From a plasmid: a DNA stretch of 64,000 bases. The stretch is from sequence record NZ_CP119397.1. The stretch is one strand, 5' to 3'. Position numbers and translations under genes: made by a program. Under the pieces are notes generated by a model. That model saw only the letters and a list, made by a program, of their open reading frames with translations, had not been told where the DNA came from and did not search any database. Below, one piece after another: positions 10,566 through 63,789 of the stretch (position 1 is its first letter; every line of letters begins with the position of its first letter).

Positions 10566-10603
10566 TTCCGTCCCTTGTCTTTTTTCCGTGGGGTAAGCGG
10601 GGG

Positions 10604-11756: not shown

Positions 11757-11846
11757 AGCCTCTCCTTACACTAATCAGGGGGGCTATATTCATCGTTTTT
11801 TATGCAAGAATAAAATGAGTTCCCATCGAAAAAAGCGATAGATGAT

Positions 11847-13386: not shown

Positions 13387-13444
13387 AACGTCTCCTTTTT
13401 GCGGTTGTGCGACAGCGGATGCGCGGCATAAACAAATGAATTAA

Positions 13445-13491
13445 TATACGCGGCGTATGTAAACTTAATCACACATACGCGGCGTATGTCA
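13445..13491. promoter_or_regulatory. Two direct copies of ATACGCGGCGTATGT(A/C)AAACT (with internal near-palindrome TACGCGGCGTA) immediately upstream of tetR; candidate TetR operators
   Basis: Seen directly: 20-bp repeats 6 bp apart, 35-80 bp upstream of the TetR ATG at 13527. Confidence 0.4.
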
Positions 13492-13526
13492 AACTACTTA
13501 CGCTGCGTCTGCTGTAAGGAGACCGC

Positions 13527-14129: not shown

Positions 14130-14233
14130 CGCCCCATGCGCACCCTGAATGGTCGTTAATAAGCATACCGGGGGTTGATGAAATTAAGCCGGACATGTCA
14201 TGGGCTTACGTGTCATTAGCCCTGTTTCTCCCG

Positions 14234-14758
14234 TTATGAGCAAAACAGATGCTCAACCTCCAGCCAACTGCCTACCCGCCGAAAACCGCTGACCTGCCGG
14301 TTATGAGGGGCAGAAAATAAGATCCCTTCCCCTCTGAAATGCTCAAAATGGCGCGCATTATCATCAATCAGATAATCTGCGTTCAGGATGCTTTTATTAC
14401 CACAGAAGACGATATTCATCGGGCTGATAAAGGAGAAATGTTTGGCCAGCCACTGGAATTTGGCATTAAACGACAGCGGAAATTCCATCGCCGCGGTGGT
14501 GATAAACACCTCATAGGTTTCGGTCAGTTTTTTGATGACCTCCTGGCTGTGCGGTATGACATCCAGATCGGCAAAAAAGCCCGCTTCGCCGATCATCTCT
14601 TCAACCTGCTCTCTGAGTTCCGGATGGAGTTGCTGGATGGTTAACCCCTCCAGGTCAGCCAGGCTGATTTGCAGAGCAAACCGGCTATTAAAGCTCGGGA
14701 TTATCTTGCTGTTAAAGTCAGCAATCACCTCATCCATATCAATCGCAATTCTCTTCAT
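14234..14758 (-). CDS. 5'(3')-deoxyribonucleotidase (HAD superfamily, NT5C family)
   Basis: 174 aa with the N-terminal IAIDMDEVIADF HAD motif I and the length typical of NT5C-type nucleotidases. AT-richer than its surroundings. Confidence 0.6.
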   Translation of the reverse strand: MKRIAIDMDEVIADFNSKIIPSFNSRFALQISLADLEGLTIQQLHPELREQVEEMIGEAGFFADLDVIPHSQEVIKKLTETYEVFITTAAMEFPLSFNAKFQWLAKHFSFISPMNIVFCGNKSILNADYLIDDNARHFEHFRGEGILFSAPHNRQVSGFRRVGSWLEVEHLFCS

Positions 14759-14839
14759 TGGATATCCTCTGTTTTCAGACCCGCAACGAGAAAAATAGGG
14801 TGGCAGACATCACGCATTGGATGCTTATCAGGCATTCCT

Positions 14840-15166
14840 TTACTGCTGTTCTCCCGCCTGGACGCGGGAGCGGTTAGCGTTTCCCCATTCGCAAAGAGGT
14901 TGTAACGCCTGCGCCAGTGTACGTCCAAACTCAGTAATGCTGTATTCAACCCTGGGCGGCACCTCCTGGAAATCGTGTCTTATCAGAATGCCATCTTCAG
15001 TGAGCGATTTAAGTTGCTGAATTAACACCTTTTCACTGATGCCTGCCGTCAGGCGCTTGAGTTCGCCAAAGCGGCGCGGACTAAACTGTAAATGGAACAA
15101 CAGCAGAGGTTTCCATTTCCCGCCAATATAATGCAACGCCACATCAAGGCCGCAGACCGGCTCCAT
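14840..15166 (-). CDS. HxlR family (MarR-like, DUF24) transcriptional regulator
   Basis: 108 aa with CGLDVALHYIGGKWK...L...GISEKVLIQQLK wHTH. Confidence 0.75.
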   Translation of the reverse strand: MEPVCGLDVALHYIGGKWKPLLLFHLQFSPRRFGELKRLTAGISEKVLIQQLKSLTEDGILIRHDFQEVPPRVEYSITEFGRTLAQALQPLCEWGNANRSRVQAGEQQ

Positions 15167-15259
15167 AACTTTTCCTTCATACTTACCTTTTGGTAGGTAC
15201 TATTATATATGAAAGTATAGCGTTACTCTCTTCTTCTACTTCGCAACCGGGATAAAAAC

Positions 15260-16009
15260 ATGGGCAAGCTGGAAGGAAAAGTCGTGGTCATCACTGGCGC
15301 TAACAGCGGTATTGGACTGGCATCGGCAAAGCGTTTTGCCGCGGAGGGCGCGCAACTCTTTATGACGGGGCGCCGTGCAGGCGAACTTGAAAAAGCGGTT
15401 TTTGAAGTAGGTCATAATGCGGTCGGGATACCCAGTGATATCTCGAAAATGCAGGATGTGGAGGCGTTGTTTCAGGAAGTCCAGCGGCAGGCCGGGCATA
15501 TTGACGTACTCTTCGCCAACGCCGGCGGCGGAGAGTTCGCCCCTTTGGCAGATATTACCGAAGCGCATTACTACCGAATCTTTGACACTAATGTTAAAGG
15601 CACGCTTTTTACCGTACAGAAAGCGCTGCCTCTACTGAAAGAGGGGGCTTCTGTCATACTGACCGGTTCCACCAGCGCCACGACCGGTGTGCCGGCATTT
15701 AGCGTCTACAGCGCCAGCAAAGCTGCCGTGCGTAATTTTGCCCGGGCGTGGATCCTTGAACTGGCGCCGAGAAAGATTCGGGTCAATATCCTGGTACCGG
15801 GCGCAACCTCAACACCGGGCTGGCATGGCCTTTCGCCTGACGAGACATTAAACAGTGAAATGATCCGCGCGGTTGAATCCACAACGCCTCTGGGCCGGCT
15901 GGCTGAACCCGCGGAGGTGGCTGCCGCGGCACTGTTCCTGGCATCGGATGACAGCAGTTTCGTTAATGGAAGCGAAGTGTTTGTTGACGGCGGCTCAGCG
16001 CAAATCTAG
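15260..16009 (+). CDS. SDR family NAD(P)-dependent oxidoreductase
   Basis: TGANSGIG glycine motif and YxxxK catalytic motif (YSASKAAV). Confidence 0.85.
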   Translation: MGKLEGKVVVITGANSGIGLASAKRFAAEGAQLFMTGRRAGELEKAVFEVGHNAVGIPSDISKMQDVEALFQEVQRQAGHIDVLFANAGGGEFAPLADITEAHYYRIFDTNVKGTLFTVQKALPLLKEGASVILTGSTSATTGVPAFSVYSASKAAVRNFARAWILELAPRKIRVNILVPGATSTPGWHGLSPDETLNSEMIRAVESTTPLGRLAEPAEVAAAALFLASDDSSFVNGSEVFVDGGSAQI

Positions 16010-16122
16010 CGATTACCTGCACTCCCTCGGCTTTTCAGAGGCCCGGTTTCGCCGGGCTTCTGTCTCTGAAGAAGAGCCGGCCCTCTCTGATAACCCGCTT
16101 CTGACACCGCTTCCTGGCGTAA

Positions 16123-16187
16123 TGTCCGCTCCCTGCTCAACGCGGACAGGGCCACGCGCCCGGCAGCCTGGTGCCGGAAGCGGACGT
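16123..16187. repeat. Copy 1 of ~60-bp inverted-repeat element (TGTCCGCtccctgCTCAacGCGGACA ... GTGCCGGAAGCGGACG)
   Basis: Seen directly. Family defined by L-end TGTCCGCTnnnCGCTCA, optional internal GCGGACA, and R-end CTGTGCCrrAAGCGGACA. Confidence 0.6.
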
Positions 16188-16229
16188 GGTTGAATTCACT
16201 GTCCGGATACGGGCCTCAAGACATTAATA

Positions 16230-17150
16230 TTATCCGTTCACCTCAGTGGTTCTGACGTTCTTCTCACCCCAGTAGGCTTTTGTCTCCACAATCTCTCCCG
16301 CCTCATTGAATTTCATTACGTCGATAACGTCGATAATGACGTTTTGCCCTCCCAGTTCTGTATGAATGGAGAACGCCATCGCAGCAGATTTCCCCTGCGT
16401 TGCCCGTACAGGTGCATTGAGCTCTACCCTGGAAGCCATCCCGTTTTTTACAAAAGACGCCAGGTTTTCTAACCCTGTAATCGGTGCTGTGCCTACCGGA
16501 TCCTCACCACTGAAATCCTGCGCAAACAAACCCAGAAAGGCATCGACATCTTTATTATTGATATGATCGAGATAGGAATGCAGCACACCTCGCATATGAG
16601 CTTCCGTAGGTGGTCGTAATGTATTGACATCAGGCATATATTTCGGAAGAAACGTCTCTTTTTCACCCTTAATAATTTGTATGTCATCCACACCCCAGTG
16701 AGCGTTTAGCGCCACAATTTTACCGTCTGCATTAAAGCGCATTACGTCTACCACCTGGATAAGCACTTCGTGGTCGCCAAAATCCATGTTAATTGTGAAA
16801 GCCATGGCCGCTGACCCACCGGGAGATGTGCGAATCGGAGCAGATAATTCCGCTTTTCGCATTGCAGACAGCCCCTCCCTGACGAAGGTTTCAATATGAC
16901 GTTTCCCGGAGACAGGATTTGCGCCCACCGGATCAATAATCACTGCGTCTTCCGCGTACATATCCAGGATTTTCTGAGGGTTCTTCTGGTTTAAGGCGTC
17001 AATATATTGAGTCAGAACCTCGTGCATATAGGCTTCAGTTGGAGAACAGGGGACCGACTCGCCTTTCATATATGCCTGAAGCACAACCTGCAAATCGGGT
17101 TGTGAATGCCCGCTATCTTTATTCATCACGCTATCCTCGCTAATTTTCAT
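16230..17150 (-). CDS. Tandem-duplicated SnoaL/NTF2-like (ketosteroid-isomerase fold) protein
   Basis: Two ~130 aa internal repeats (EAYMHEVLTQYIDALNQ... and EAHMRGVLHSYLDHINN...), each resembling an NTF2/SnoaL domain. Start taken at MKISEDS (GGAAGGTGG RBS). Confidence 0.55.
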   Translation of the reverse strand: MKISEDSVMNKDSGHSQPDLQVVLQAYMKGESVPCSPTEAYMHEVLTQYIDALNQKNPQKILDMYAEDAVIIDPVGANPVSGKRHIETFVREGLSAMRKAELSAPIRTSPGGSAAMAFTINMDFGDHEVLIQVVDVMRFNADGKIVALNAHWGVDDIQIIKGEKETFLPKYMPDVNTLRPPTEAHMRGVLHSYLDHINNKDVDAFLGLFAQDFSGEDPVGTAPITGLENLASFVKNGMASRVELNAPVRATQGKSAAMAFSIHTELGGQNVIIDVIDVMKFNEAGEIVETKAYWGEKNVRTTEVNG

Positions 17151-17445
17151 AGAGCCACCTTCCCGCTTTCGGTAGAACATGTCGGCACCATCAGCAATGA
17201 AAGATCACTATGTGGCCTCGTACTGTGCCACTGTCTCCTCAATACCGTTTATATCGTCATTACGAACAGTTGCTCACATTATGCACGGTTAACATGCCCC
17301 ACCTATTTACCGGCGGTAGCCGTAAATGAGCCGTTTCAGAATATACATTTATCAAAAACAGGAATAAATCGGCAAAAATAAGAAGATACTTCCCATATTT
17401 GGAAGGTTAAAGGGGGGTTAAGCGCTGCCAGGCTGAAGCGGAAAT

Positions 17446-17510
17446 GTCCGCTCCTCGCTCATAACGACCATAGGTTTATGCGGCGGTCTGTTTTGTGTCA
17501 GAAGCGGACG
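17446..17510. repeat. Copy 2 of the inverted-repeat element (L-end TGTCCGCTCCTCGCTCATAACGACCAT, R-end TGTGTCAGAAGCGGACG)
   Basis: Seen directly. Confidence 0.55.
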
Positions 17511-17846
17511 TTGGCTGAATTGAAAAAAATCGTGATGTGTTTTCATTAACGCAGATCGCCAAGGCCTTGGGTGCATCGGTGGCCGCAGAGGCGATTGACG
17601 CAGTGCAAACGATCGGTGCGGATGCCGTCCTTGGCTATAAGCAGCCGGTTCCAAAGACGCTGGACAGGCAGTACGCACGGCAGCCTGACAGTCGCGGATT
17701 GCGGCAGGCTCGTTAAGTCGGGCGGCGTCATTCTCGACATCACCCGTCGCCATCAACGCTGTTCCGCATATCCTTTCCCCCGGCCGAAAATTTGTGATGG
17801 CAAAGCAGCACATCGCGACGTTACATCCCTTGCAGACTGCGTGCGT

Positions 17847-18320
17847 TTAAATACGATGTGGGCGCGTGGCGAAGAAGACCACCGCGGCGCCGAGAGCGAC
17901 GATGAGCGTATCTTCAATCAGGCCGCTCTTGGTCTGCCCCATCGCTGCCATGGCCTTTTTGCGTGCCGCAAGCGTTGCATAGGCAAGTGGCACAGCGGCA
18001 GAGACAGCGATCGCTGCCCCGGTTTTTTCTTCTCCGCGGGGTGCCAATGCGGCGCCCGCAATCCCTGCACTGGCCACGCGTGCTGACAAGCCCAAAAACA
18101 CGGTGCGGTCCGGCGCTGACTTCATCTTGTCGCCAAAGAGTTCACCTACGCCCATCGCTAACGCGCCGTATTTGAATAGCGGACGGTCCAGCAGCAGGAG
18201 ACTGCCCGAGGTGTCGCGCCCGGCAGCGCGTGCTGTAGCCAGGGCCGCCATCGGCGTCATGGAACGGCAGCTGGCGACAAAGCCAATCAGGGCGGAATAA
18301 ACAAAATCGGTTATTTTCAT
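17847..18320 (-). CDS. DUF4126-like membrane protein
   Basis: 157 aa, Ala/Gly-rich, 4 predicted TM. Assignment from memory, low certainty. Confidence 0.45.
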   Translation of the reverse strand: MKITDFVYSALIGFVASCRSMTPMAALATARAAGRDTSGSLLLLDRPLFKYGALAMGVGELFGDKMKSAPDRTVFLGLSARVASAGIAGAALAPRGEEKTGAAIAVSAAVPLAYATLAARKKAMAAMGQTKSGLIEDTLIVALGAAVVFFATRPHRI

Positions 18321-51878: not shown

Positions 51879-53369
51879 ATGATGGCGTTTCTGCTGCTGA
51901 CGGCACTCGCTGTCATCGTGATTAATGGGTGGTCCCTGTGGAGCGCCTGGCAGCACAGGCTGAAAGAGAAAGAAGATGATGCCCGGAACCTCTCGGTGTC
52001 GCTGGCCCGTCAGGCCGAGGATACCTTTCTCCAGGTGGATATCTCGCTTGGCGAGGTGGTCAGGCACCTCCGGCAGAACGGCCCGGACTATGCCGCCACG
52101 CCCGCTTTTACCCGCCAGTTGCAGGAGCAGCAGGGCAAACTGACGCAACTGCACTCCCTGTCGGTTTTTGATGCCCACGGAAACCGGGTGGCCTCCTCGG
52201 GGCGTTACGTACCGGCCACATCCAACAACGCCGACCGGGAGTATTTTATCTGGCACCGCACCCACGCGGATACCAACGTGCATATCAGCCATGTCACTTA
52301 CAGCCGCTCCACGTCGGATCTGTTTATTCCGGTATCCGTGCGCCTCAATGACAGCGCGGGCAACTTTGCCGGGATCGCGCTGGCGGCGGTGAAGGTGGAT
52401 TACTTCAAACATTTTTACAGCTATTACACCCTGGGCGAGCGGGATGAACTGGGGCTGATCCTGGCGGATACCTCCATCCTCTACATGCGCCCGTTCCCGG
52501 ATACCTATATTGACAGAAGGCTGACCGCCAGCCCGCTGTTCAAAACGCCGCCAAAAGCGCTGAACAGCGGCAACGAGACGTGGCGCTCCTCGCTGGATGG
52601 CGTAAACCGCATCTTCGGCCATGCCCGCTTCGGGCGATACCCGCTGATCGTGCTGGTGGGCTATGACCGGGACAGATTGCGATCGGAATGGCTGGCCGCC
52701 AACCTGACCTCCGTCACGCTGAATGTGGTGCTGTTGGCGGTGCTGATGGGAATGGGGCTGGTTGTGCTGAGGCAGGTCAGAACCAGCATCAGGAATCAGC
52801 TCGAGCTGACCCAGACCAAAGACGAACTCACCACCCTCAACCGCACTTTACAGTCGCTGGCACTGGTGGACAGCCTGACCGGCCTGGCAAACCGCCGGCA
52901 TTTTGACGCGCTGCTTGCGCAGGGCCTGGCGCGGTCGCAGAAATCCGGTGAGCCGATCTCGCTTATCATGATGGATATCGACTTTTTCAAACACTATAAC
53001 GACACCTACGGGCACGTCGCGGGGGACATGTGCCTGAAAAAGGTAGGTGGCCTGCTCAGCAACATTACATATCGCCATACTGACCTGGTGGCCCGTTACG
53101 GCGGGGAGGAGTTTGCGATTATTCTGCCTTTCGCGAATGCAGCCGACGCGAAACAGTTAGCTGACTGGGCGGTGAGGGCGGTCAATGGGGCGGGCATGGT
53201 ACACGGGGCCACGCTGCTGCCCCATAAAGTGGTCACGATCAGCGCCGGGTGCTGCACGATTATTGCGGATGGGCATGAGGGCGAGGCCACCGAGTTCCGG
53301 GAACGGGCAGACGCGATGCTTTATGAGGCCAAACGCCTTGGCCGCAACCGGGCGCACGCGGAGGGGTAA
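51879..53369 (+). CDS. Membrane sensor diguanylate cyclase (periplasmic Cache-like domain + GGDEF, intact GGEEF)
   Basis: TM-periplasmic domain-TM, then RYGGEEFAIIL with the conserved RxxD-region. Start position uncertain (51879 or earlier in frame). Confidence 0.7.
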   Translation: MMAFLLLTALAVIVINGWSLWSAWQHRLKEKEDDARNLSVSLARQAEDTFLQVDISLGEVVRHLRQNGPDYAATPAFTRQLQEQQGKLTQLHSLSVFDAHGNRVASSGRYVPATSNNADREYFIWHRTHADTNVHISHVTYSRSTSDLFIPVSVRLNDSAGNFAGIALAAVKVDYFKHFYSYYTLGERDELGLILADTSILYMRPFPDTYIDRRLTASPLFKTPPKALNSGNETWRSSLDGVNRIFGHARFGRYPLIVLVGYDRDRLRSEWLAANLTSVTLNVVLLAVLMGMGLVVLRQVRTSIRNQLELTQTKDELTTLNRTLQSLALVDSLTGLANRRHFDALLAQGLARSQKSGEPISLIMMDIDFFKHYNDTYGHVAGDMCLKKVGGLLSNITYRHTDLVARYGGEEFAIILPFANAADAKQLADWAVRAVNGAGMVHGATLLPHKVVTISAGCCTIIADGHEGEATEFRERADAMLYEAKRLGRNRAHAEG

Positions 53370-53471
53370 GCGCCCTTCGCCGGGGTTACCCTGCCGGCAT
53401 GGTCTCGACAAGCTGGTGCTATAGATAATGGCGAGCACGCACGATTGCCTCAGATACTGCGCTCAGCTAGC

Positions 53472-53485
53472 CTGTACATGTACAG
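53472..53485. promoter_or_regulatory. Perfect 14-bp palindrome CTGTACATGTACAG 15 bp upstream of the phd-like antitoxin gene; candidate TA autoregulatory operator
   Basis: Seen directly. Confidence 0.5.
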
Positions 53486-53499
53486 TGATGAGGTGACTT

Positions 53500-53793
53500 A
53501 TGAAAACGATAAGCTATACCAAAATGCGTGATGATCTGGCGAATGTGCTTGAAATGCTGAGAAGTGGTGAACCCGTGACGGTTACTCAACGCGGCGAGCC
53601 GGACATTGTGTTAAATGCAGAGGCCGAGCCTGCTATCAAAGCAGGAAGCTGGAGAACGGCTGGGGAAAACCAACCAAAACAGCTCATCACCTCGCTGACA
53701 AAAAAAATGTCAGAAGGGATGACGTTTGAACAAGCCAAAGCAAAAACGCAAATGAAACACGCACATATTATTAAAGCCCTGGAAGATAAATAA
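53500..53793 (+). CDS. Phd/YefM-family antitoxin (C-terminally atypical, 97 aa)
   Basis: N-terminal MKTISYTKMRDDLANVLEMLRSGEPVTVTQRGEPDIVL matches the YefM/Phd fold. The stop overlaps the ATG of the doc remnant (TAATG). Confidence 0.6.
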   Translation: MKTISYTKMRDDLANVLEMLRSGEPVTVTQRGEPDIVLNAEAEPAIKAGSWRTAGENQPKQLITSLTKKMSEGMTFEQAKAKTQMKHAHIIKALEDK

Positions 53794-54034
53794 TGGCTAT
53801 TCAGTTTTTGACAACAGAACAGGTAACGATGCCAATAAGCGCACTGCATTCCAGGCAGCTTCTATCTTCCTGATGATGAATGGCTATGAATTGAGTACCT
53901 CTTTCAGGCTGGTTAAACTCACGGTGTTAGCCGCTGAAGATGATGCAAATCTGCTTGAAACAGCCTTTTCTCTGAAATTGCTTTCAGATTATCGTGATGA
54001 TCTTATGGATGAATATCCCGAAGAATATATCTGA
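53793..54034 (+). pseudogene. Degraded doc (death-on-curing, Fic-fold) toxin gene: frameshifted and internally deleted
   Basis: Frame 1 gives MAIQFLTTEQV (Doc-like N-terminus) and stops after 26 codons. Frame 3 continues with NDANKRTAFQAASIFLMMNGYEL, the Doc HxFxDANKRTA motif region lacking the His. The total span is too short for an intact ~126 aa Doc. Confidence 0.55.
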
Positions 54035-54280
54035 AGAACGGGGTTTTCTCGCAGCCTGAAGGCAGCCCCTTTTATGAGTTGGGGTTAATCGTAAGTTATT
54101 ACAATCGGCTGTTTCTGCTAATGAATAAAGCCTCTGACAGGTATCATTGCATGTACCGTCAATTTCCCCCGTGTTTCCACCCTGCATCCCACCCCCGCTG
54201 AAACCTCATTCACAATTATCCGGCGCGTAATCACACTTTCCTGATAAGGGTATTGTCTGGTGTTTTTTCTGCTGTAGATT

Positions 54281-54296
54281 GCTAACTCGAGTTAGC
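54281..54296. promoter_or_regulatory. Perfect 16-bp palindrome GCTAACTCGAGTTAGC upstream of the GH172 gene; candidate LacI-family operator
   Basis: Seen directly. A near-identical site lies at 60091-60110. Confidence 0.55.
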
Positions 54297-54454
54297 TTGG
54301 CGGAAGAGAGGGAGGATAGGCCGCGTGGGGCGCGGGCAATGGGTCTCCTCTTCGCAGTGGCCGGGCAGACACGGCACAGTGTGCGGCCTGCCGGTGCGGG
54401 ATGGCCGCATGTTCAGCCTGGGACAAGCAGGCTTTTGCGATGAGGAGCTAGACC

Positions 54455-55681
54455 ATGCATCACATGACATCAGGGCTACTGGGGCATTTGACCAAAACCA
54501 GCCAGGCCACCAGCGGGCGCTTTTCCAGCCACGACACCAGCGGGAAAAATCAGGATTACTGGATGATCGGCGCAGGGGACACTGTGCGGCTGGCGGACAT
54601 CCAGGGGCCGGGCTGTATTACCCATCTGTGGATGACGCAGTTCTGCCGCCGCGTGCTCGGGCCGGGGCTGATTGACCCGGCCGCCGGGCAATATGTCGCG
54701 CCCATCAATGAGATCAATAATGCGCTCGGCGTCAGCTGGGAAATCCACGACCCGGACTACTACCGCAAGGTGCTGCTGAAAATCTACTGGGATGACCAGA
54801 CCACGCCCTCGGTGCTGGTGCCGCTGGGGGATTTCTTCTGCGTCGGCCACGGCATCCCGGCCACCTTCACCAGCCTGCCGTTTACCGTCTCTGTCCGGCC
54901 GGAAGAGCAGTACCGCCCCGGCGGCACGGCGGCGCTTAACTGCTACCTGCCGATGCCGTTTAACAGCCGGGCGATCATCGAAGTCGAAAACCAGAACGAC
55001 GTGCCTTACGGGCAATATTTCCACATCGATTACGAGCAGTACCCGCAGGCGCTGGGCACCGATACCGCCTATTTCCACGCCAGCTGGCGGCGCGAAGCGC
55101 CCTGTGCCGGCTGGGCGCCGGAGTTGCAGGTCAACAGCCCCGAGGTGAATATCGCGAACCTGGACGGCGCCAATAACTATGTGATCCTCGACATCGAAGG
55201 CGAGGGGCATTACATCGGTTGCAACCTGTCGGTGGCCCATGCGCAGGGCACCTGGTGGGGCGAAGGGGATGACATGATCTTCGTGGACGATGACACCTGG
55301 CCGCCGACGCTGGTGGGCACCGGCAGCGAAGACTATTTCAACCATGCGTGGGGGATGCAGGAGAACGCCTCGCTGATGAACGGCTGCTCGCTGCATGACG
55401 CGCATGTGCCGGGGCACCAGACCTGCTACCGCTTCCACCTCACCGATCCGGTGCATTTCAAAAAACGTATCCGCGTCACCATGGAACACGGCCACGCCAA
55501 CCACCTGGCGGATGACTGGGCCACCACCGCCTACTGGTATCAGACCTTGCCCTCCCAACCGGTCACCATCCAGCCGGTAGAGGAACGGCTGCCGGGGCAA
55601 CGCACGGGGGAACCGCAGGTGGCGTTAACCCCGGAAATGCAGCAGCAAAAGCGCAGGCGCAGCAGCGTTTCGCGGCGATGA
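54455..55681 (+). CDS. DUF2961 / glycoside hydrolase family 172 protein (alpha-D-arabinofuranosidase / difructose-dianhydride-type)
   Basis: 408 aa. Conserved DUF2961 blocks (ITHLWMTQ, YWDDQTTPSVLVPLGDFF, GTGSEDYFNHAWG). Confidence 0.7.
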   Translation: MHHMTSGLLGHLTKTSQATSGRFSSHDTSGKNQDYWMIGAGDTVRLADIQGPGCITHLWMTQFCRRVLGPGLIDPAAGQYVAPINEINNALGVSWEIHDPDYYRKVLLKIYWDDQTTPSVLVPLGDFFCVGHGIPATFTSLPFTVSVRPEEQYRPGGTAALNCYLPMPFNSRAIIEVENQNDVPYGQYFHIDYEQYPQALGTDTAYFHASWRREAPCAGWAPELQVNSPEVNIANLDGANNYVILDIEGEGHYIGCNLSVAHAQGTWWGEGDDMIFVDDDTWPPTLVGTGSEDYFNHAWGMQENASLMNGCSLHDAHVPGHQTCYRFHLTDPVHFKKRIRVTMEHGHANHLADDWATTAYWYQTLPSQPVTIQPVEERLPGQRTGEPQVALTPEMQQQKRRRSSVSRR

Positions 55682-55826
55682 TGCGCCTGCGCCAGGAGGG
55701 TATTGACCAGAAACTGGCGGCCACGCGGCAAAAATCCGCGCTGAACCGCCGGACAAAATAACCCTTCCCCCTGTCAGGGCAGGGCCAGCCTGCCCTGAAC
55801 CCGTTGACGTGAACCGAGGTACAGTG

Positions 55827-57191
55827 ATGGATAACCGATTATCTGTGCTGGAAAAAAGTGCCTATGGCTCGGGTGACATGGCGCTCACCATCTCCATAAT
55901 TTCAGCCTCTATTTTGATTTACGCTTTCCTGATCCAGGTGGTCGGGTTAACGCCCGTGGACGCCGGCTGGATCCTGATGGCGGTGCGCACCATTGATGCC
56001 ATCTCCGACCCGATGATGGGCTGGCTGACCGGCAAAGTGCGCACGCGCCTCGGCCGTTACCGCCATTGGTTGCTGATTGGCGCGCTGCCGTTCGGCATCT
56101 CCCTTTACCTGCTGTTTACCACGTTCGGCCAGAGCTACGGCGAGAAAATGGCCTGGTCAACCGGGGTTTATATCTTTAACAGCCTGGCATTTACCGTGCT
56201 GGCCATTCCTTATATCTCGCTGATCGGCGTGATGACGCGTGACCCGCAGGAGCGGCTGCTGGCGAACGCGTACCGGTTCCCGATGGCGAAAGTCGCCACG
56301 CTGATTGTCTCCACCTTTGTGCCGTATTGGGTCACCAGCGGCGGGGATGCGCGCAGCAGTTATGCGAATGCGTTTCTGGTGATTGGGCTGGTCAGCGTCG
56401 CGCTGGTGATGTTCTGCGCCTTTAACGTCAAAGAGCGCGTCAAACCGGAAGCGCCGCCCGAACCGCTGGCGCGGCAGATTTCCGGGCTGGTGAAAAACGA
56501 TCAATGGCTGGCGCTGAGCCTGGCGATGGTACTGCTGTTTATCGGCTTGCTGGTGAACGGCAGCATCGCCATCATCTACGGCAAGGAGTTCGCCGGGGCC
56601 ACCGATGGCTGGGGCATCGCATTTTTCATGGGCATGGGATCGGTGGGCGGCATCGTCGGCCCGTTTGTCTCGCTTTGGCTCACGAAACGCTACTGCAAAG
56701 TCGCGGTGTTCCGCTGGTCGATGTATGGCTCGGCGCTGGTGTCGGCGCTGGCCTGGCTGCTGGTGGGGCAGAACGATTTCTACCTGGCGACCGCCTTTTA
56801 CCTGCTCTGTTCGATTGTCTCGCAGATCAACACCCCGATCCTCTGGTCATCAATTACTGAAGCCTCGGATTACGGCCGGATTAAAACCGGCATCGACGCG
56901 GGCGGGCTGTCGATTGGGATGATCTCGTTTTGCCAGAAATTCGGGATGGGATTATCCGGCCCGATCACCGGATACCTGATGACCTGGGTCGGTTACCGCG
57001 CCGGTACTGCGCTACAGCCGGAGGCCATCAGCGGGATAGAGGGGATCATGACGCTGGTGCCCGCCTTCTTCTATATTGTGGTCGGGCTGGTGATGCGCAA
57101 ATACATCATCAACAACAGCTACTACAACGCCATGATGGCGGAAAACAGCCTGCCCGCCGCCGCAATCAAAGAGCACCAATGGGCGGGCTGA
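55827..57191 (+). CDS. MFS glycoside-pentoside-hexuronide (GPH):cation symporter family transporter
   Basis: ~455 aa, 12 TM, with the GPH-type N-terminal D-rich loop (DAISDPMMGWLTGKVRTRLGRYRHW). Start at ATG 55827 (GAGGT RBS). Confidence 0.8.
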   Translation: MDNRLSVLEKSAYGSGDMALTISIISASILIYAFLIQVVGLTPVDAGWILMAVRTIDAISDPMMGWLTGKVRTRLGRYRHWLLIGALPFGISLYLLFTTFGQSYGEKMAWSTGVYIFNSLAFTVLAIPYISLIGVMTRDPQERLLANAYRFPMAKVATLIVSTFVPYWVTSGGDARSSYANAFLVIGLVSVALVMFCAFNVKERVKPEAPPEPLARQISGLVKNDQWLALSLAMVLLFIGLLVNGSIAIIYGKEFAGATDGWGIAFFMGMGSVGGIVGPFVSLWLTKRYCKVAVFRWSMYGSALVSALAWLLVGQNDFYLATAFYLLCSIVSQINTPILWSSITEASDYGRIKTGIDAGGLSIGMISFCQKFGMGLSGPITGYLMTWVGYRAGTALQPEAISGIEGIMTLVPAFFYIVVGLVMRKYIINNSYYNAMMAENSLPAAAIKEHQWAG

Positions 57192-57202
57192 CAGGACGGC
57201 GG

Positions 57203-58195
57203 TCAGCGGTGCCGGGTGATTAACGTCATGTCCACATTCAGCGCGCCCAGCGGGGGCGCGCCGTCTATCCGCTGCTGCATCATCTCAAACGCCTGCTGCG
57301 CCCAGGCATCCTCGTTCTGCTGCATCGACCAGACATTATTCGCCAGGAAACTCAGCATCGGGTGCTCGTCAAAGGTGCCGAGGTTGATAGCGCCCGGCAG
57401 CGCCCCGGCGTGGGCGCGCACGGCCTCAATCGCCCCTTCCAGCACCGGCAGGGAGGAGGCGATAAAGGCGGCGGGCAGCCCGTGCGTGTTGATGACCTGC
57501 GCCATCATCGCGTTGCCGCTTTCGGCGCTGTTGCCGCGGCCGGTCGCCACCCAGGCTGCCGGGTCAAGGCCGTGCGCCGTCAGTACGCGCCGGTAGCCCG
57601 CCAGCCGTTGGCGGATGGAGGGCAGCTCCGGGTCACCGGCCAGGAACCACAACGGCGGCGCGCCCGCCTGCAACATCGCCTGCGTCAGCGTCTCGCCCCC
57701 ATCAATGTTGTTGCTCTCGACCAGCGAATGGTTCATCCCGAGGAAATCACGGTCGAGAAACACCAGCGGTTTTTTTACCCGCTTCAGGTGGTGCTGCTGG
57801 TTCTCACGGCTGGAGGGCACAATAAACAGCCCGTCGGTGTTGCGCGCAATCATCGCCTCCACCCGCTTATTCTCATACTCCGGGTCATCGTAGGTGCAGC
57901 TGATCATCAACTGGTAGCCGAATTTACGGCAGTACAGCTCCAGCTTTTCGGCCAGCGTGGCAAAAAAGACGTTGGAGAGGCAGGGCAGGATCAGCCCGAG
58001 GGTGTAGGTTTTATTGAGTTTCAGGCTGCGGGCAGAGTGGTTGAGGGTATAGCCGTGGTGGCCGACATACTCCATGACCCGCGTCTGGGTTTTCGCGCTG
58101 ATGCGGTACTGTGCTGCTTTGTTCCCCAATACCAGCCGGACGGTGGTCACCGACAGGTTCAGGTCATTCGCTATCTGTTCTACCGTTTTCGCCAT
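57203..58195 (-). CDS. LacI family transcriptional regulator
   Basis: N-terminal HTH MAKTVEQIANDLNLSVTTVRLVLGNK and a periplasmic-binding-fold effector domain. Confidence 0.85.
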   Translation of the reverse strand: MAKTVEQIANDLNLSVTTVRLVLGNKAAQYRISAKTQTRVMEYVGHHGYTLNHSARSLKLNKTYTLGLILPCLSNVFFATLAEKLELYCRKFGYQLMISCTYDDPEYENKRVEAMIARNTDGLFIVPSSRENQQHHLKRVKKPLVFLDRDFLGMNHSLVESNNIDGGETLTQAMLQAGAPPLWFLAGDPELPSIRQRLAGYRRVLTAHGLDPAAWVATGRGNSAESGNAMMAQVINTHGLPAAFIASSLPVLEGAIEAVRAHAGALPGAINLGTFDEHPMLSFLANNVWSMQQNEDAWAQQAFEMMQQRIDGAPPLGALNVDMTLITRHR

Positions 58196-58311
58196 GCCAT
58201 ACCGCTCCCTTCACGCCGTGACTGGCCGGTAGTATAAAGGCAAAGCGCGTGCAGCGCCCCCCTAAACAGGCGGGGGGCTGCGATAACCTGCGCCGGAACA
58301 GCAAGATAGCC

Positions 58312-59892
58312 TCAGCGCATCAGCGTATTGAGCGCCTGTTGCTGATCGTACATCGCCAGATAGGCGCGGTATTTCTGATCGTGGAACGCTTTTTTCGTCA
58401 CATTGGCCGCGATCACCCGGTCAGGGCGTACCATCGCCGCACAGGCGGCGGTGATGCCCGGCCAGTAACCGCCTGCCGCCGCGCCGGTAATCGCCGCGCC
58501 GAGCGTGACCGGGTCATCGTCACTCACCAGCTGGATATCACAGCCGGTGATGTCGGCGTATTCGCGCAGCCACAGCGGGTTACGCGTCGCCCCGCCGCAC
58601 ATCACCAGCCGCGTGACCCGGTGGCCGGAGGCCGCCATTACCTCCATGATGTGCCGGGTGCCGTAGGCGATCGCCTGTAGCGTGGCGAGGTAAAGCCGTG
58701 CCAGTGCCGGTTCGCCGCGTTCCAGCGTCAGGCCGCTGACGCTGCCGCGCGCGTCCGGTTGGGCACGGGGTGAGCGGTTGCCGTGGTGATCCGCCAGCAC
58801 ATGCAGGTGGCGGGTCGGGAACGGCTCGCGCTGTTCCAGTTGTGCCACCCAACGGTTGACCAGTTCCACCGGGTGGCACTGCTGCGCGGCGGCCTGCTCC
58901 GTGAGGTGCACACTGCCGCCCTGCTGGTGCAGCGTCCAGTCCACCAGCGCGCCCGCCGCGCTCTGCCCGCCCTCCGTCAGCCACCAGCCCGGCAGCATCG
59001 CTGACCAGTACGGCCCCCAGACCCCCGGCGTCATCACCTTTTCGCGGTTCGCCAGCATATGGCAGTTGGAGGTGCCGCTGATCAGCGCCAGCGTGGCGTC
59101 CGGTTGGGTACCCAGCAGCGCCAGCCCGCCCGCATGGGCATCGATCATCCCGGCGGCCACCACCACCTGCGGCGACAGCCCCAGCGCGTCGGCTGCCTGC
59201 GGGGTGAGCGTCCCGGCACGTGCGCCGACCTCCAGCACCGTCGCCGGGAGTTTTTCCGGCAGATCGCCAAGGCCCACCGCCGCTAACAGACTCTCGCTGA
59301 AGCGCTGCTCATGCGCCAGGTAATTCCACTTGCAGGTCAGGGTACAGAGGCTGGCGGCGTCCTGGCCGGTGGCTTTCCATACCAGAAAATCCGCCAGGTC
59401 GAAGAAACGGTGCACCTGCCGGTAGCGTTCCGGCAAATGGGTTTTCAGCCACAGCACCTTGGGCAGTTGCATCTCGAGGCTGACTTCACCGCCGACATAC
59501 TGCAACGCCTCATCACCGGTCTGGTTGATGCAGGCGGCCTCTGCCCCGGCGCGGTGATCCATCCACATGATGGTGTCGTGTGCCGCGTTTCCCTCGGGCG
59601 ACACCGCCACGCCGTGGCCCGCCGCATCCACCGCCACCAGCGAACAGGTGGCGTCAAACCCCAGCGAGCGCACCGCCCGGCGGTCAATACCGGCTTTGTC
59701 CAGCGCGGTATTGACCACCGCGCAGACCTGCTGCCAGATCTCTGACGAGGCGTGTTCCACCCGCTCGCCGCCGGGGCGGAACTGGGTAATGGGTTCTACC
59801 GCAAACGCCAGCCGCGTACCTTGCGCGTCATACACGCCGGCCCGTACGCTGGCTGAGCCGACATCCACCCCTAAAAAGTAATCCTGTGCCAT
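58312..59892 (-). CDS. FGGY-family pentulose kinase (ribulokinase-like)
   Basis: Start at MAQDYFLGVDVGSASVRAG (AGGAGGG RBS). FGGY N- and C-domain motifs throughout. Confidence 0.8.
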   Translation of the reverse strand: MAQDYFLGVDVGSASVRAGVYDAQGTRLAFAVEPITQFRPGGERVEHASSEIWQQVCAVVNTALDKAGIDRRAVRSLGFDATCSLVAVDAAGHGVAVSPEGNAAHDTIMWMDHRAGAEAACINQTGDEALQYVGGEVSLEMQLPKVLWLKTHLPERYRQVHRFFDLADFLVWKATGQDAASLCTLTCKWNYLAHEQRFSESLLAAVGLGDLPEKLPATVLEVGARAGTLTPQAADALGLSPQVVVAAGMIDAHAGGLALLGTQPDATLALISGTSNCHMLANREKVMTPGVWGPYWSAMLPGWWLTEGGQSAAGALVDWTLHQQGGSVHLTEQAAAQQCHPVELVNRWVAQLEQREPFPTRHLHVLADHHGNRSPRAQPDARGSVSGLTLERGEPALARLYLATLQAIAYGTRHIMEVMAASGHRVTRLVMCGGATRNPLWLREYADITGCDIQLVSDDDPVTLGAAITGAAAGGYWPGITAACAAMVRPDRVIAANVTKKAFHDQKYRAYLAMYDQQQALNTLMR

Positions 59893-60090
59893 TTTCCCTC
59901 CTGCGGTGATGCGATGAGTCATTGCTGATTCGACGTAGCGTTGGGCAGACCATAATTCACCCGGCATTTTCCCTCAAACAGTTTGGCAGAAGTTTGTGAA
60001 CGGGCGCAGGTCAGCCGCGCTTTTGTGCGCAGGCGTGAAAACCCTCACAGAACGTTCTGAAAGGGGTTGCCGACTTTTTGCTGTTCGCCC

Positions 60091-60110
60091 TAAGCTACGT
60101 CGAGTTAGCA
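60091..60110. promoter_or_regulatory. Second LacI-type operator GCTACGTCGAGTTAGCA in the divergent kinase/fucI promoter region
   Basis: Right half TCGAGTTAGCA identical to the 54281 palindrome. Left half has 2 mismatches. Confidence 0.5.
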
Positions 60111-60165
60111 ATAATCTGCGCCGGAAATGCGGCGCACCGCGTGATTCTTTTTACAGGGGAACGTT

Positions 60166-61944
60166 ATGACTCACAGCAACCCATTACCCCGTATCGGCAT
60201 CCGCCCGGTGATTGACGGGCGGCGCATGGGCATCCGGGAATCGTTAGAGGCGCAGACCATGGCGATGGCCTGCGCCACCGCACGCCTGCTCAGCGGCACC
60301 TTGCGCCATGCGAACGGCGAGCGCGTAGAGTGTGTGATTGCCGAACAGTGCATTGCCGGGCGGGCAGAGGCCGCCGCCTGTGAAGCGGCCTTCAGCACCC
60401 AACATGTTGGCCTGACCATTACGGTGACGCCCTGCTGGTGCTACGGCAGTGAAACCATCGACATGGACCCGCAGCGGCCGAAAGCGATCTGGGGCTTCAA
60501 CGGCACCGAGCGGCCGGGGGCGGTCTATCTGGCGGCAGCGCTGGCGGCGCATAACCAGAAAGGGCTGCCGGCGTTTTCGATTTACAGCCACGAGGTGCAG
60601 GACGCCGGGGACGAGCGCATTCCGCCTGACGTGCAGGAGAAGCTGCTGCGCTTCGCCCGTGCCGGGCTGGTGGTGGCGACATTGCGCGGCAAAAGTTACC
60701 TGTCGCTGGGCGGGGTATCGATGGGGATCGCCGGGTCGATTGTCGACCATGACTTTTTCGAGTCCTGGCTGGGGATGGCGGTGCAGTGCGTGGACATGAC
60801 CGAGCTGCGCCGCCGGATGGACCACGCTATTTATGATGAAGAGGAGCTTGGCCTTGCGCTGGCGTGGGCGGGGCAGCATTTCCGCTTTGGGGAAGACCGC
60901 AACGCCGCGCACCATCAGCGCAGCGCCGCCGGGAAACAGGCGATGCTGCGCGAATCTCTGCTGATGGCGATCTGCATCCGCGACATGATGCAGGGCAACC
61001 CGGTACTGGCGGAGAAAGGCTGGGGCGAGGAGGCGCTGGGGTACAACGCCATTGCCGCCGGTTTTCAGGGCCAACGCCACTGGACCGATCACTACCCGAA
61101 CGGCGACACCGCGGAAGCCTTGCTCAACAGCGCGTTTGACTGGCACGGCATAGGCGAACCCGGTGTGCTGGCAACAGAAAATGACAGCCTGAATGCGGTG
61201 GCGATGCTGTTCGGCAAACACCTCACCGGCACCGCGCAGATTTTTGCCGATGTCCGCACCTACTGGTCACCGGCCTCGGTGCAGCGGGTCACCGGCCATA
61301 CGCTTACCGGCCGCGCCGCGCAGGGCGTGATCCACCTGATTAACTCCGGCTCGGCGGCGCTGGACGGTACCGGCTGCCAGCAGGCAAGCGACGGCCGGCC
61401 GGCCATCAAGCCGCATTGGGACATCACGCCGCAGGAGGCGGACGCCTGCCTGGCGGCCACCACCTGGCACCCGGCGCTGCATGACTATTTCCGTGGCGGC
61501 GGCTTCTCCTCCTGCTTCCTGACCCGCGGCGGTATTCCTTTCACCATGACGCGCATTAACCTGATCAAAGGGCGTGGGCCGGTGCTGCAAATCGCCGAAG
61601 GCTGGAGTGTGGATCTGCCGCCGGAGGTGCATGACACCCTGAACCAGCGCACTGACCCGACCTGGCCGACCACCTGGTTTGTGCCGCGCCTCACCGGCAG
61701 CGGCCCGTTCAGTGAGGTGTATAACGTGATGGCGAACTGGGGGGCCAACCACGCGGTGCTTACCGCCGGGCACGTCGGGGCGGATTTCATTACCCTGGCG
61801 GCGATGCTGCGCATCCCGGTCTGTATGCATAACGTGCCCGATGCGCAGATCTACCGCCCCAGCGCCTGGGCCGCCTTCGGCATGGACCCCGAAGCACAGG
61901 ATGACCGCGCCTGCCAACACTATGGCCCGGTATATAAACGTTGA
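60166..61944 (+). CDS. fucI: L-fucose isomerase / D-arabinose isomerase
   Basis: 592 aa, near-colinear with E. coli FucI ([21 protein letters not shown]..., [16 protein letters not shown]..., catalytic region intact). Confidence 0.9.
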
Positions 61945-62083: not shown

Positions 62084-62524
62084 ATGAAAAAAAATGCTAA
62101 AGAAAAACCGGCATCTGCCGATATCTTCCTGACCACGTCTGTCACGTTGACGGGGTTTGATAAGGCTTACAGTGGTTTTGATAACGGCCGGTTTCACCGG
62201 CTGAGTGTCCAGATAAAGCCTTACTATTTTCCGACGGAAAACTGGATAACACGTTTCCATGAAAAATACCCGCATAGCGGCGTGGCATTTACCCTTTCTC
62301 AGCGTGGTATTGGCTATATCACGTTTCATGACATGACAATCAAGGCGGATGAACTCGATGCCTTTGTGTCTTCCCTGCTTGCTGTGATTGAAGGTATTAA
62401 CGAGGCAACGGGGAATGAACCTATTGTCACGGTGATAAGTGCCGGAGAGTGCGCACAGGCTGAGCACCCAGAGATCAATGCCTGTATGAACAGGATTGAT
62501 TTTTCACTGCAAGGAGCAAGATAA
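62084..62524 (+). CDS. Hypothetical protein (no recognisable family), AT-rich island
   Basis: 146 aa ORF with reasonable codon usage. Sits 3 nt upstream of the next ORF (operon-like). Confidence 0.35.
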   Translation: MKKNAKEKPASADIFLTTSVTLTGFDKAYSGFDNGRFHRLSVQIKPYYFPTENWITRFHEKYPHSGVAFTLSQRGIGYITFHDMTIKADELDAFVSSLLAVIEGINEATGNEPIVTVISAGECAQAEHPEINACMNRIDFSLQGAR

Positions 62525-62526
62525 AG

Positions 62527-63207
62527 ATGTTACAAGATGCCTGTGCCGCCTTTTCTCTCTTTAATACCTCGTCTGATCGGTTAAAGGCGCACTCCGCGCA
62601 CTATTTCCCGCGTTTTAATTACGCAGCCTGTGAGCTTTGGTTGTGCAATGAAATTTGCCATCTGGTTAATGCCGGGGAAAATGGTGTGCAGCAGATGTCA
62701 GACGGGGATGTGTTCCTCTATAATGAAGACGCAAAACGTGATTTAACCTTATATACCGCAGGAAGAACAGCCACCCCAGAAATAAAAAAACATATTGAAG
62801 TGAAAGTGGCTTACCCGGTAGAGAAATCAAAGTTCCTGGATTCCATAAGAAATTTGCGCGAAAAACTTACACCCTCGCTTGATGCTGAGTATCGGCTGGA
62901 AGGGTGGGTTTATCTGGTCTGGACGCAACATTATGCTATTTCACCGGACGCATTTTTTGAAACCCGTCTTCACTGGCTAAAAACGGAACTGGCATCCGGG
63001 GAATACCGTGGCGCATCAGGTATCACCTATCAACCCATGTTTTCTACGGTAAAACAGATTGCCGAGGGGAACTTAACCTGGCGCGGGCAGGATAAACACA
63101 TTGTGGTGAAAGCGGTGGCCTTTTCATTTCATAAAGAGTGGAAAGAAATATTCAAGGAAGTAAAAGAAAAGTATGCGGAGACCTTTGAGATTCTCGCCAC
63201 CCGTTAA
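62527..63207 (+). CDS. Hypothetical protein (no recognisable family), AT-rich island
   Basis: 226 aa ORF, Lys/Glu-rich C-terminus. Convergent with hcp. Confidence 0.4.
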   Translation: MLQDACAAFSLFNTSSDRLKAHSAHYFPRFNYAACELWLCNEICHLVNAGENGVQQMSDGDVFLYNEDAKRDLTLYTAGRTATPEIKKHIEVKVAYPVEKSKFLDSIRNLREKLTPSLDAEYRLEGWVYLVWTQHYAISPDAFFETRLHWLKTELASGEYRGASGITYQPMFSTVKQIAEGNLTWRGQDKHIVVKAVAFSFHKEWKEIFKEVKEKYAETFEILATR

Positions 63208-63309
63208 TGGGGCGCTGGCAAGGTATTATTGCCTGGAAGTATAGCAGCCTGATGTCGCAATACAGAAAGAAAACGGGGAGGCGGAGCGCTGCCCCGTTTT
63301 ATGGCGCCA

Positions 63310-63789
63310 TTAAAAACGAGCCAGGTCGTTCCACTGGTCTGTATGGATAATGTTACCGTCACAATACTTCCAGGTTATTTTCCCATAACGCAGGAGAACG
63401 GTTTCAAGATGGGTTTTCGTGGAGGCGTCGGGATAGAGATCAGGGGTGATAGAGGTAATCTTAACATTTTCCAGCAGGGTGTTAAAATACTCGACTTCCC
63501 TGCCGGCCTCATTGACAGAATATTTTTTTATGACCGCGGATTTAAGGGTGAGATTATTGGTTAATGCTTTATACAGGAACGGTGTCGTCCTGTCCGCTTC
63601 TTTTTGAATCATGATGGGCGAATGGATACGGGTTCCCGTCAGGCGGCCGGTGTTCCCATCGATAGGAATAGTCAGATTGTGCGTAAAAAATTTCAGTTCG
63701 ATAGCGCCTTCTCTTCCAATAACTTCCGAGGCCCCAACAATCGGGGAGCCGTTTTCATCCGTTAACCATAAATAAGAGGGGTTGGACAT
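63310..63789 (-). CDS. hcp: Type VI secretion system tube protein Hcp (TssD)
   Basis: 159 aa, near-colinear with enterobacterial Hcp (MSNPSYLWLTDENGSPIVG...TGRLTGTRIHSPIMIQKE...KITWKYCDGNIIHTDQWN). AAAGGAG RBS. No other T6SS genes in the window. Confidence 0.85.
   Translation of the reverse strand: MSNPSYLWLTDENGSPIVGASEVIGREGAIELKFFTHNLTIPIDGNTGRLTGTRIHSPIMIQKEADRTTPFLYKALTNNLTLKSAVIKKYSVNEAGREVEYFNTLLENVKITSITPDLYPDASTKTHLETVLLRYGKITWKYCDGNIIHTDQWNDLARF

Follow-up and report, generated by a model that had tools for sequence, protein, structure and literature searches.

A five-gene GH172-FucI island of Chimaeribacter arupi as a candidate LacI-repressed regulon for small alpha-D-arabinofuranosides

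A five-gene island at positions 54281-61944 of a 64,000-nucleotide stretch of the plasmid sequence record NZ_CP119397.1 was analysed; this whole 64-kb stretch is called the window here and positions refer to it unless another locus is named. The island encodes a GH172 (DUF2961) glycosidase, a GPH-family symporter, a LacI-family regulator, an FGGY-family pentulose kinase and the isomerase FucI. The locus is probably a single regulon for small alpha-D-arabinofuranosides, repressed by LacI and dependent on CRP, and would have originated from the joining of a GH172-GPH pair to a D-arabinose module of the type found in Escherichia coli B. This reading is carried by the gene identities, the orthology to E. 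coli B, synteny, operator conservation, a clade-specific loss of GH32 and a change in the +1 subsite of the glycosidase; the substrate, the position of phosphorylation, the binding of the repressor to its operator and the effector are predicted from sequence.

In the proposed pathway, the GPH symporter would import a small alpha-D-arabinofuranoside, from which the cytoplasmic, retaining GH172 enzyme would free D-arabinose. FucI, the established enterobacterial D-arabinose isomerase, would convert D-arabinose to D-ribulose, and the DarK-type FGGY kinase would phosphorylate the latter to D-ribulose-5-phosphate for entry into the pentose phosphate pathway. The Cra-like LacI repressor would bind GCTAAnTCGAnTTAGC operators that overlap -10/+1 at the promoters of GH172-GPH and of fucI, and would also act weakly at the kinase-lacI promoter. 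Repression would be lifted by a pathway intermediate, and both operons would be controlled by CRP and LacI. The combination of GH172, fucose isomerase and kinase has already been documented for D-arabinan loci (PMC10115798, PMC10509167), and for polysaccharide utilisation locus (PUL) 42 of Dysgonomonas gadei the fucose isomerase ranked first in abundance among carbohydrate-active proteins on D-arabinan (PMC10115798).

All five genes that the original prediction had listed were found in place by profile matches (Table 1). The GH172 protein was matched over the full length of the Pfam model and is without a signal peptide; its homologues bear the GH172_1st/dom/2nd domains. The symporter is listed with a start at 55809, and the ATG at 55827, which matches the 454-aa gene call in near-identical C. 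arupi loci, is probably the start. For the kinase the most likely start is 59892 (526 aa), where an AGGAGG Shine-Dalgarno sequence is found and where orthologue alignments begin (residue 26 of the listed open reading frame, ORF). For the regulator the best models were TIGR02417 ('fruct_sucro_rep', D-fructose-responsive) and Cra, both below their cut-offs. Compared with C. arupi 2016-Iso3, fucI carries compensating -1/+1 indels five bases apart (60991-60996), by which one to two codons are changed and the frame is kept. In the gap between the GH172 and symporter genes (55774-55798) a G+C-rich 10-bp stem-loop, TCAGGGCAGG gccag CCTGCCCTGA, was found; it is without a T tract and may serve in mRNA stability or processing.

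Table 1. Genes and predicted control sites of the island, in window positions.
Feature	Position	Strand	Basis
TCACA half-site, upstream of the putative GH172/GPH promoter	54231-54235		
Putative GH172/GPH promoter: -35 TTGTCT (54253-54258), 16-nt spacer, -10 TAGATT (54275-54280)	54253-54280	+	Invariant alignment columns
Operator O1, perfect palindrome GCTAACTCGAGTTAGC	54281-54296		Exact match; directly 3' of the putative GH172 -10
GH172 (DUF2961) retaining alpha-D-furanosidase, alphaFFase1 clade, predicted cytoplasmic	54455-55681	+	PF11175, 284 bits
Out-of-frame GH172 remainder, which in other C. arupi strains completes the coding sequence of the C-terminal alpha-helix	55682-55761	+	Comparison with P0001, L006
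GPH-family (MFS_2) glycoside:cation symporter, predicted importer of the GH172 substrate	55827-57191	+	TIGR00792, 253.5 bits (cut-off 231); Pfam MFS_2, 243 bits
LacI-family regulator, Cra/FruR-like branch, provisionally 'DarR-like'	57203-58195	-	TIGR02417, 233 bits, below cut-off
FGGY pentulose kinase, DarK orthologue	58312-59892 (listed ORF to 59967)	-	TIGR01315, 511 bits (cut-off 409)
Degenerate site resembling the operator, GCTGATTCGACGTAGC, 32 nt upstream of the kinase start	59924-59939		12/16 match
Predicted CRP-like site CGTGA-N6-TCACA	60034-60049		Centre ~61.5 nt upstream of the inferred fucI transcription start
Putative fucI promoter: -35 TTGCCG (60067-60072), 18-nt spacer, -10 TAAGCT (60091-60096)	60067-60096	+	Conservation
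Operator O2, GCTACGTCGAGTTAGC, kinase/fucI divergent region	60094-60109		14/16 match; 57 nt upstream of fucI
FucI, L-fucose/D-arabinose isomerase	60166-61944	+	NF008220, 1088 bits, and TIGR01089, 1078 bits; both equivalog models above cut-off

The D-arabinose half of the island was recognised by comparison with E. coli B. A DNA search for distant relatives of the kinase gene gave matches in 455 of 5426 E. coli genomes, E. coli B and BL21 among them. The E. coli B genes are arranged as fucR-fucU-fucK-fucI and, divergently, ATP-binding cassette (ABC) ATPase-permease-substrate-binding protein (SBP)-FGGY kinase-LacI-fucA(IS1)-fucO, so that the cassette takes the place of fucP. Over the full length, the window proteins are 66% (kinase, 526 aa), 65% (LacI) and 76% (FucI) identical to their E. 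coli B counterparts, and the two LacI proteins have near-identical helix-turn-helix regions. FucI is also 76% identical to the E. coli K-12 protein, and the kinase has only 24% identity to FucK. Moreover, the fucI-ABC intergenic region of E. coli B (C3029, L087) holds two exact copies of GCTAACTCGAGTTAGC at 5040-5055 and 5279-5294 of that locus, and no copy was found in the K-12 fuc region. Due to these identities and the shared operator, the regulator, operator, kinase and isomerase form one conserved unit, and judged by orthology this is a unit with a known physiological role, the catabolism of D-arabinose via D-ribulose-5-phosphate. The map fucA-darK-fucI-fucK with a B-specific segment of roughly 5 kb was reportedly drawn by Elsinghorst and Mortlock in 1994, and it is consistent with the gene order found in E. 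coli B. The E. coli B kinase, DarK, is a D-ribulokinase needed for D-arabinose metabolism (PMC12307932); growth on D-arabinose is seen for BL21(DE3) and not for K-12, and ECD_02649 of BL21, located between fucA and fucI, was assigned the D-ribulokinase reaction (PMC6150544). The proposal that FucI and the FGGY kinase constitute a D-arabinose route was therefore borne out by orthology, which also makes the pair of FucI and D-ribulokinase an old enterobacterial pathway. From the two exact operators in E. coli B and their absence from the K-12 fuc region it is predicted that the LacI protein of the cassette would repress fucI and darK and respond to D-arabinose. We know of no prior description of this E. 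coli B regulator or of its operator.

The glycosidase half has a different set of relatives. The window GH172 protein aligned with alphaFFase1 of Bifidobacterium dentium (PDB 7v1v) over about 400 residues at an E value of 5e-164, while the D-arabinan exo-arabinofuranosidases gave far weaker matches (1e-33 for 8ic8, 2e-49 for 8ah3, range to 5e-50); on these values it is a close relative of alphaFFase1, a difructose-dianhydride enzyme, rather than of the D-arabinan enzymes. AlphaFFase1 interconverts difructose dianhydride I (DFA I) and inulobiose, also hydrolyses methyl- and p-nitrophenyl (pNP)-alpha-D-arabinofuranoside (kcat 127 s-1), and is encoded in a locus with a GH32 enzyme, an ABC transporter and a LacI regulator (PMC8605356).

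The neighbours of alphaFFase1-like genes were scored in a sample of 80 genomic loci. A GH32 homologue lies nearby in 56 of them, including loci of Rhizobiales, Vibrio, Paenibacillus, Bacillus, Streptomyces and Verrucomicrobiota, and a separately fetched Klebsiella michiganensis locus (L003) has the same GH172-GH32 arrangement. Only six of the 80, all from Enterobacterales, carry FucI and the Cra-like LacI, with or without the DarK-type kinase, which is likewise confined to this set: C. arupi, C. californicus, Huaxiibacter chinensis, Lelliottia sp. and two Superficieibacter; GH32 is missing from all six. Three metagenome-derived lineages with the same arrangement (L089, L091, L093/L094) brought the total to nine FucI-linked loci, again none with GH32. 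The nine FucI-linked GH172 proteins form a single clade, to which the GH32-linked enzymes of Klebsiella and Vibrio are sister, and the symporter is 57% identical to the GPH protein of the K. michiganensis GH172-GH32 locus (57-58% across Klebsiella/Vibrio). A plausible origin is that the GH172-GPH pair came from such a gamma-proteobacterial, difructose-anhydride-type GH172-GH32 locus and was joined to an E. coli B-type D-arabinose module, with loss of GH32 and of its original regulator. The earlier assignment of the pair as a glycoside-handling front end was supported.

The loss of GH32 is accompanied by a change in the active site (residues in alphaFFase1 numbering unless window numbering is stated). 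The catalytic, Ca-site and -1 subsite residues N31, D33, Y187, W267, E270, T288, E291, D292 and W298 are unchanged in the window protein, the nine clade members and the GH32-linked enzymes; these include both catalytic glutamates, E270 (acid/base) and E291 (nucleophile, E292 in window numbering), and the -1 subsite residues Y187, W267, D292 and W298. Residue 147 is lysine in 56/56 GH32-linked enzymes and arginine in 9/9 FucI-linked ones. The +1 residue E85 is kept, and H87, two residues away, is asparagine in the FucI-linked clade, which has P154, D314, H316, S93 and H97 as further signatures. In alphaFFase1, the exchanges K147A and E85A/Q left 94-100% of the activity on pNP-alpha-D-arabinofuranoside and less than 5% on inulobiose (PMC8605356). 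The invariant -1 residues together with K147R and H87N argue that the FucI-linked clade retained the furanoside-binding pocket and remodelled its aglycone-binding +1 site.

K147R as a marker specific for arabinose was considered and rejected, since R147 is also present in Lachnospiraceae enzymes without FucI. These belong to an alphaFFase1-like group from Lachnospiraceae, Blautia and Ruminococcus (L046, L047, L052, L073-L075, L083) with K147R, H87E and Y187F, in which no member has GH32 nearby and FucI was not found. Two of these loci (L046, L075) also encode an ABC transporter, a further, more distantly related GH172 protein, a large (alpha/alpha)6 glycosidase-like protein and LacI, and the group probably acts on yet another substrate.

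The two halves of the island are connected by the operator. The original prediction had reported the same operator at the GH172 and kinase/fucI sites; a copy was confirmed at both, the second being not identical as it differs from the first by 2 mismatches. None of 100 shuffles yielded two or more matches. In all nine lineages the operator is located upstream of both GH172 and fucI with 0-2 mismatches: 0-1 on the GH172 side in all orthologous loci, 0-2 on the fucI side with E. coli B included, and 0-1 at both genes in the three metagenomic lineages. It is also found upstream of the kinase or the ABC operon wherever that promoter is separate. In Chimaeribacter, Huaxiibacter, Lelliottia and Superficieibacter it is the sole long invariant block upstream of GH172 and fucI. 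No match with one mismatch or fewer was found in 1.44 Mb of other GH172 loci, and a literature search for the operator sequence returned short hairpin RNA constructs only. With the operator conserved at the GH172 and fucI promoters of every orthologous locus examined, the proposal of a single regulon gained support.

A consensus promoter and terminator scan gave nothing at O1 or O2, and the promoter elements in Table 1 are inferred from cross-species conservation. Upstream of GH172, an alignment of six genomes has invariant TCACA, TTG and TA..TT columns; upstream of fucI, an alignment of seven genomes including E. coli B has invariant TTG and TA.GCT columns, and the putative fucI -10 overlaps O2; the elements upstream of GH172 are laid out in an analogous way. 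The CRP-like site aligns in six of the seven genomes (the E. coli B extract begins downstream of it) with GTGA/TCACA kept, the left half being TGTGA in Superficieibacter. The degenerate site upstream of the kinase is retained in C. californicus, in L089 the corresponding position is taken by an exact operator, and the site possibly serves for weak autoregulation. The same operator motif was also seen at 8591, 8964 and 18307 of a locus of E. coli FDAARGOS_536 (L088), the genes of which (8995-18263) encode a related FGGY kinase (60%), a related LacI (55-56%), a major facilitator superfamily transporter, a mandelate-racemase-type dehydratase, a short-chain dehydrogenase/reductase (SDR) and a protein of the dihydrodipicolinate synthase family; this locus may represent a different, perhaps oxidative, sugar route under a paralogous regulator.

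The comparison of the gene set, which had been suggested as a check and was performed on the nine loci, revealed GH172, GPH, LacI and FucI as the invariant core, the kinase being present in some versions only. The five-gene version occurs in Chimaeribacter between variable type VI secretion system (T6SS)/toxin islets, in L089 between a ppk-ppx/ABC region and purNM, and in L091 in a yajQ...yajR-cyo context. In Huaxiibacter and Lelliottia the island sits between yajR and the cyo operon and is extended by a FucA equivalog (406 bits, cut-off 400) and a ribose-type ABC importer (12788-19644 of L008/L010); the gene order, fucA-lacI-kinase-SBP-permease-ATPase / fucI, is exactly that of E. coli B, to which the SBP is 89% and the ATPase 81% identical. 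That FucI in these two genera belongs to a canonical fuc operon next to the island was ruled out, as the intervening 3.9 kb encode the ribose-type ABC importer and the island is bordered by yajR and cyo. A reduced version without kinase is found in the Superficieibacter-type islands (L009, L011, L093/L094). In L093 a gene for a FucU/RbsD-family mutarotase (15853-16275) lies 3' of FucI, and its product could convert the released sugar between its furanose and pyranose forms. In total the island occupies at least three different chromosomal sites, which argues that its genes move and are selected as a unit.

Several observations weigh against the assignment to alpha-D-arabinofuranosides. The GH172 allele of the window is frameshifted, and by the E values given above the GH172 protein is far closer to the fructofuranosidase/DFA I enzyme than to proven D-arabinan exo-arabinofuranosidases. 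The occurrence of K147R in Lachnospiraceae loci without FucI means that the exchange marks 'not DFA I/GH32' and not 'arabinose'. Related islands bear FucA or FucU, which would fit L-fucose-type or ketose-1-phosphate chemistry too, and the Superficieibacter-type islands are without the kinase. Finally, the search for GH32 covered the 64-kb window, and such a gene could lie elsewhere in the genome.

The frameshift gives rise to the first of three rival explanations, in which the GH172 enzyme of this strain is disabled by decay and a D-arabinose/D-ribulose module is left. The GH172 ORF codes for 408 aa, versus 435 aa in other C. arupi strains (P0001, L006), since an A5 run is reduced to A4 at 55647-55650 and the resulting -1 frameshift removes the C-terminal helix. 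The active site of GH172 enzymes sits between protomers. In alphaFFase1 the C-terminal helix (residues 397-448) wraps the hexamer (PMC8605356), so that its loss speaks for decay; the minimal catalytic unit in GH172 is, on the other hand, a trimer and not a hexamer (bioRxiv 10.64898/2026.08.13.744632). Decay is further opposed by the double jelly-roll catalytic domains, which are intact to residue 400, by the other island genes, which are intact and about 99% identical to those of other strains, and by the fact that homopolymer-length errors are common assembly artefacts. The A4 run may be a strain-specific lesion or such an error, and we regard decay as an unlikely explanation.

According to the second explanation, the island would consist of two separate, co-regulated modules: GH172-GPH would act on alpha-D-fructofuranosides or DFA I to yield fructose or inulobiose, and FucI with the kinase would process free D-arabinose or D-ribulose from other uptake. 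The close alignment with alphaFFase1, in which the -1 subsite is completely kept, the GH32 linkage of the sister clade and of most relatives, and the placement of the regulator in the fructose-responsive Cra/FruR branch can all be quoted in its favour. However, GH32 is missing from the nine islands and from the window, K147, which is needed for inulobiose and DFA I, is substituted in 9/9, and the original fructose-type LacI is gone, a dar-type operator now being located upstream of GH172. In addition, the set moves as a unit among chromosomal sites. The GPH protein is moreover the sole transporter in the five-gene version, so that two modules would leave D-arabinose without dedicated uptake, and this explanation is accordingly considered improbable.

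The third explanation, an L-fucose-type route in which GH172 would act on a furanoside that shares its ring configuration with alpha-D-arabinofuranosides, for example a beta-L-fucofuranoside or beta-L-galactofuranoside, FucI on L-fucose, the kinase would form a ketose-1-phosphate and an aldolase would follow, is very improbable, even though FucI is a full L-fucose isomerase equivalog, relatives bear FucA (at the score given above) or FucU, and L-fucose and D-arabinose have the C2-C4 configuration in common. The kinase is a TIGR01315 pentulose kinase and DarK orthologue with low identity to FucK, and the presence of both FucK and DarK in E. coli B implies that the two have differing roles. L-fucofuranosides are very rare in nature, no aldolase or FucK was found in the island or the window, and the FucA of Huaxiibacter and Lelliottia could have been carried over from a gene order like that of E. 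coli B, fucA-lacI-darK-ABC-fucI.

The prediction that fucose-pathway partners are missing was upheld for the window, where tblastn with E. coli K-12 proteins found no homologue of fucA, fucK, fucP, fucO or fucU (fucR was not queried); a GH32 homologue was not found in the window either. The K-12 fuc proteins matched only fucI, apart from one FGGY cross-match of 23% identity, and a canonical fuc operon elsewhere in the window was not seen. The prediction does not hold for the related islands, where FucA with the ABC importer (Huaxiibacter, Lelliottia) or FucU (Superficieibacter-type) is present. Genes of a dar-type ABC importer were not found in the window either. The island consists of five genes flanked by unrelated ones, and an endo-D-arabinanase (GH183/DUF4185) or GH116 is not among them; with no endo-acting or secreted enzyme in the island, only small, already released glycosides could be scavenged.

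Compared with known systems, the E. coli B dar cassette is closest in the D-arabinose half: orthologous kinase, LacI and FucI, the same 16-bp operator, FucI divergent from the cassette and the same predicted chemistry from D-arabinose via D-ribulose to D-ribulose-5-phosphate. It differs in having an ABC importer for the free sugar as well as fucK, fucU, fucR, fucA and fucO, and in lacking GH172 and GPH, whereas the window has these two and neither an ABC transporter nor FucK or FucA was found there. With the B. dentium alphaFFase1 locus (PMC8605356) the island shares the GH172 subfamily and a cytoplasmic enzyme with a dedicated importer; unlike that locus it has no GH32, carries K147R and H87N, uses GPH instead of ABC transport and a LacI of another branch, and its downstream enzymes are for D-arabinose and not fructose. 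The Klebsiella michiganensis and Vibrio viridaestus GH172-GH32-GPH-LacI loci are similar in GH172 (64-65%), GPH (57-58%) and the layout of GH172 followed by the transporter, but they contain GH32, keep K147 and H87 and are without the operator, FucI and kinase; apart from the DNA-binding domain, the Klebsiella LacI has no significant full-length similarity to that of the window. The PULs of Dysgonomonas gadei (PUL42) and Microbacterium arabinogalactanolyticum also combine GH172, a fucose-type isomerase and a kinase leading to the pentose phosphate pathway (PMC10115798, PMC10509167); these D-arabinan PULs differ by secreted endo-D-arabinanases (GH183), GH116, SusC/D or ABC transport and distant GH172 subfamilies. 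With the canonical L-fucose regulon (fucPIKUR-fucAO) only FucI is shared, adjacent FucK, FucA, FucP, FucO and FucU not being found.

The claim that the pathway had not been described in Enterobacterales has to be narrowed, because FucI with D-ribulokinase is the classical route of E. coli B, while the coupling to GH172 and GPH appears undescribed. In the searchable literature no description was found of an alphaFFase1-clade GH172 and GPH fused to a dar module, nor of the clade-specific GH32 replacement or the shared operator, E. coli B included. What appears to be new is thus the coupling of GH172/GPH to the dar module, the D-arabinose half and the activity of the GH172 family being already known. 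The principle itself is not new, and the hypothesis is well supported.

To our knowledge, D-arabinose is seldom found in nature except in the cell walls of mycobacteria and related organisms. Its use by other bacteria was recently worked out for Bacteroidota and Actinobacteria; if the reading as an alpha-D-arabinofuranoside regulon is true, a compact, mobile, single-repressor enterobacterial island would add a third and minimal solution, in which uptake and cytoplasmic cleavage take place without secreted enzymes, and D-arabinan scavenging would extend to enterobacteria. It can tentatively be proposed that the mobile island of an Enterobacterales clade turned a caramel/fructan-type GH172 into a cytoplasmic alpha-D-arabinofuranosidase wired to the D-arabinose regulon, by which enteric bacteria could cross-feed on D-arabinan fragments of actinobacterial (mycobacterial/corynebacterial) walls or on other D-arabinofuranose glycoconjugates. 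The island would then be a natural example of pathway rewiring, in which a fructose-type glycosidase and transporter were kept, GH32 was exchanged for FucI and the kinase, one +1 lysine was changed and a new repressor was adopted. If true, it would also provide a candidate repressor ('DarR') and operator that explain the D-arabinose-inducible fucI/darK of E. coli B, as well as candidate enzymes for the analysis of mycobacterial glycans.

With regard to its surroundings, the island is not a known plasmid element or E. coli element: in a near-identity DNA search with the locus, plasmid-labelled records gave just fucI cross-matches (77%) and complete E. coli genomes none. Two C. arupi assemblies contain the same five genes and match the segment 54210-64000, island included, at about 99% identity. 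The G+C content of the island is 58-65% versus 44-57% in the flanks. The upstream flank encodes a GGDEF cyclase and an SDR as well as a Phd-like antitoxin, which is accompanied by a remnant of Doc. The spot directly upstream of the island (53362-54210) is strain-variable: here it holds an ORF for the Phd/YefM-like antitoxin (53500-53793) and the truncated Doc-like remnant (53873-54034), and in other C. arupi strains Hcp, an effector with a Tlde1 domain and a small ORF are located at the same spot. Downstream, in the region 62084-63789 (G+C 44-45%), ORFs of 146 and 226 aa without annotation or a Pfam/NCBIfam match are followed by a minus-strand Hcp gene, and this region is probably a T6SS effector/immunity islet.

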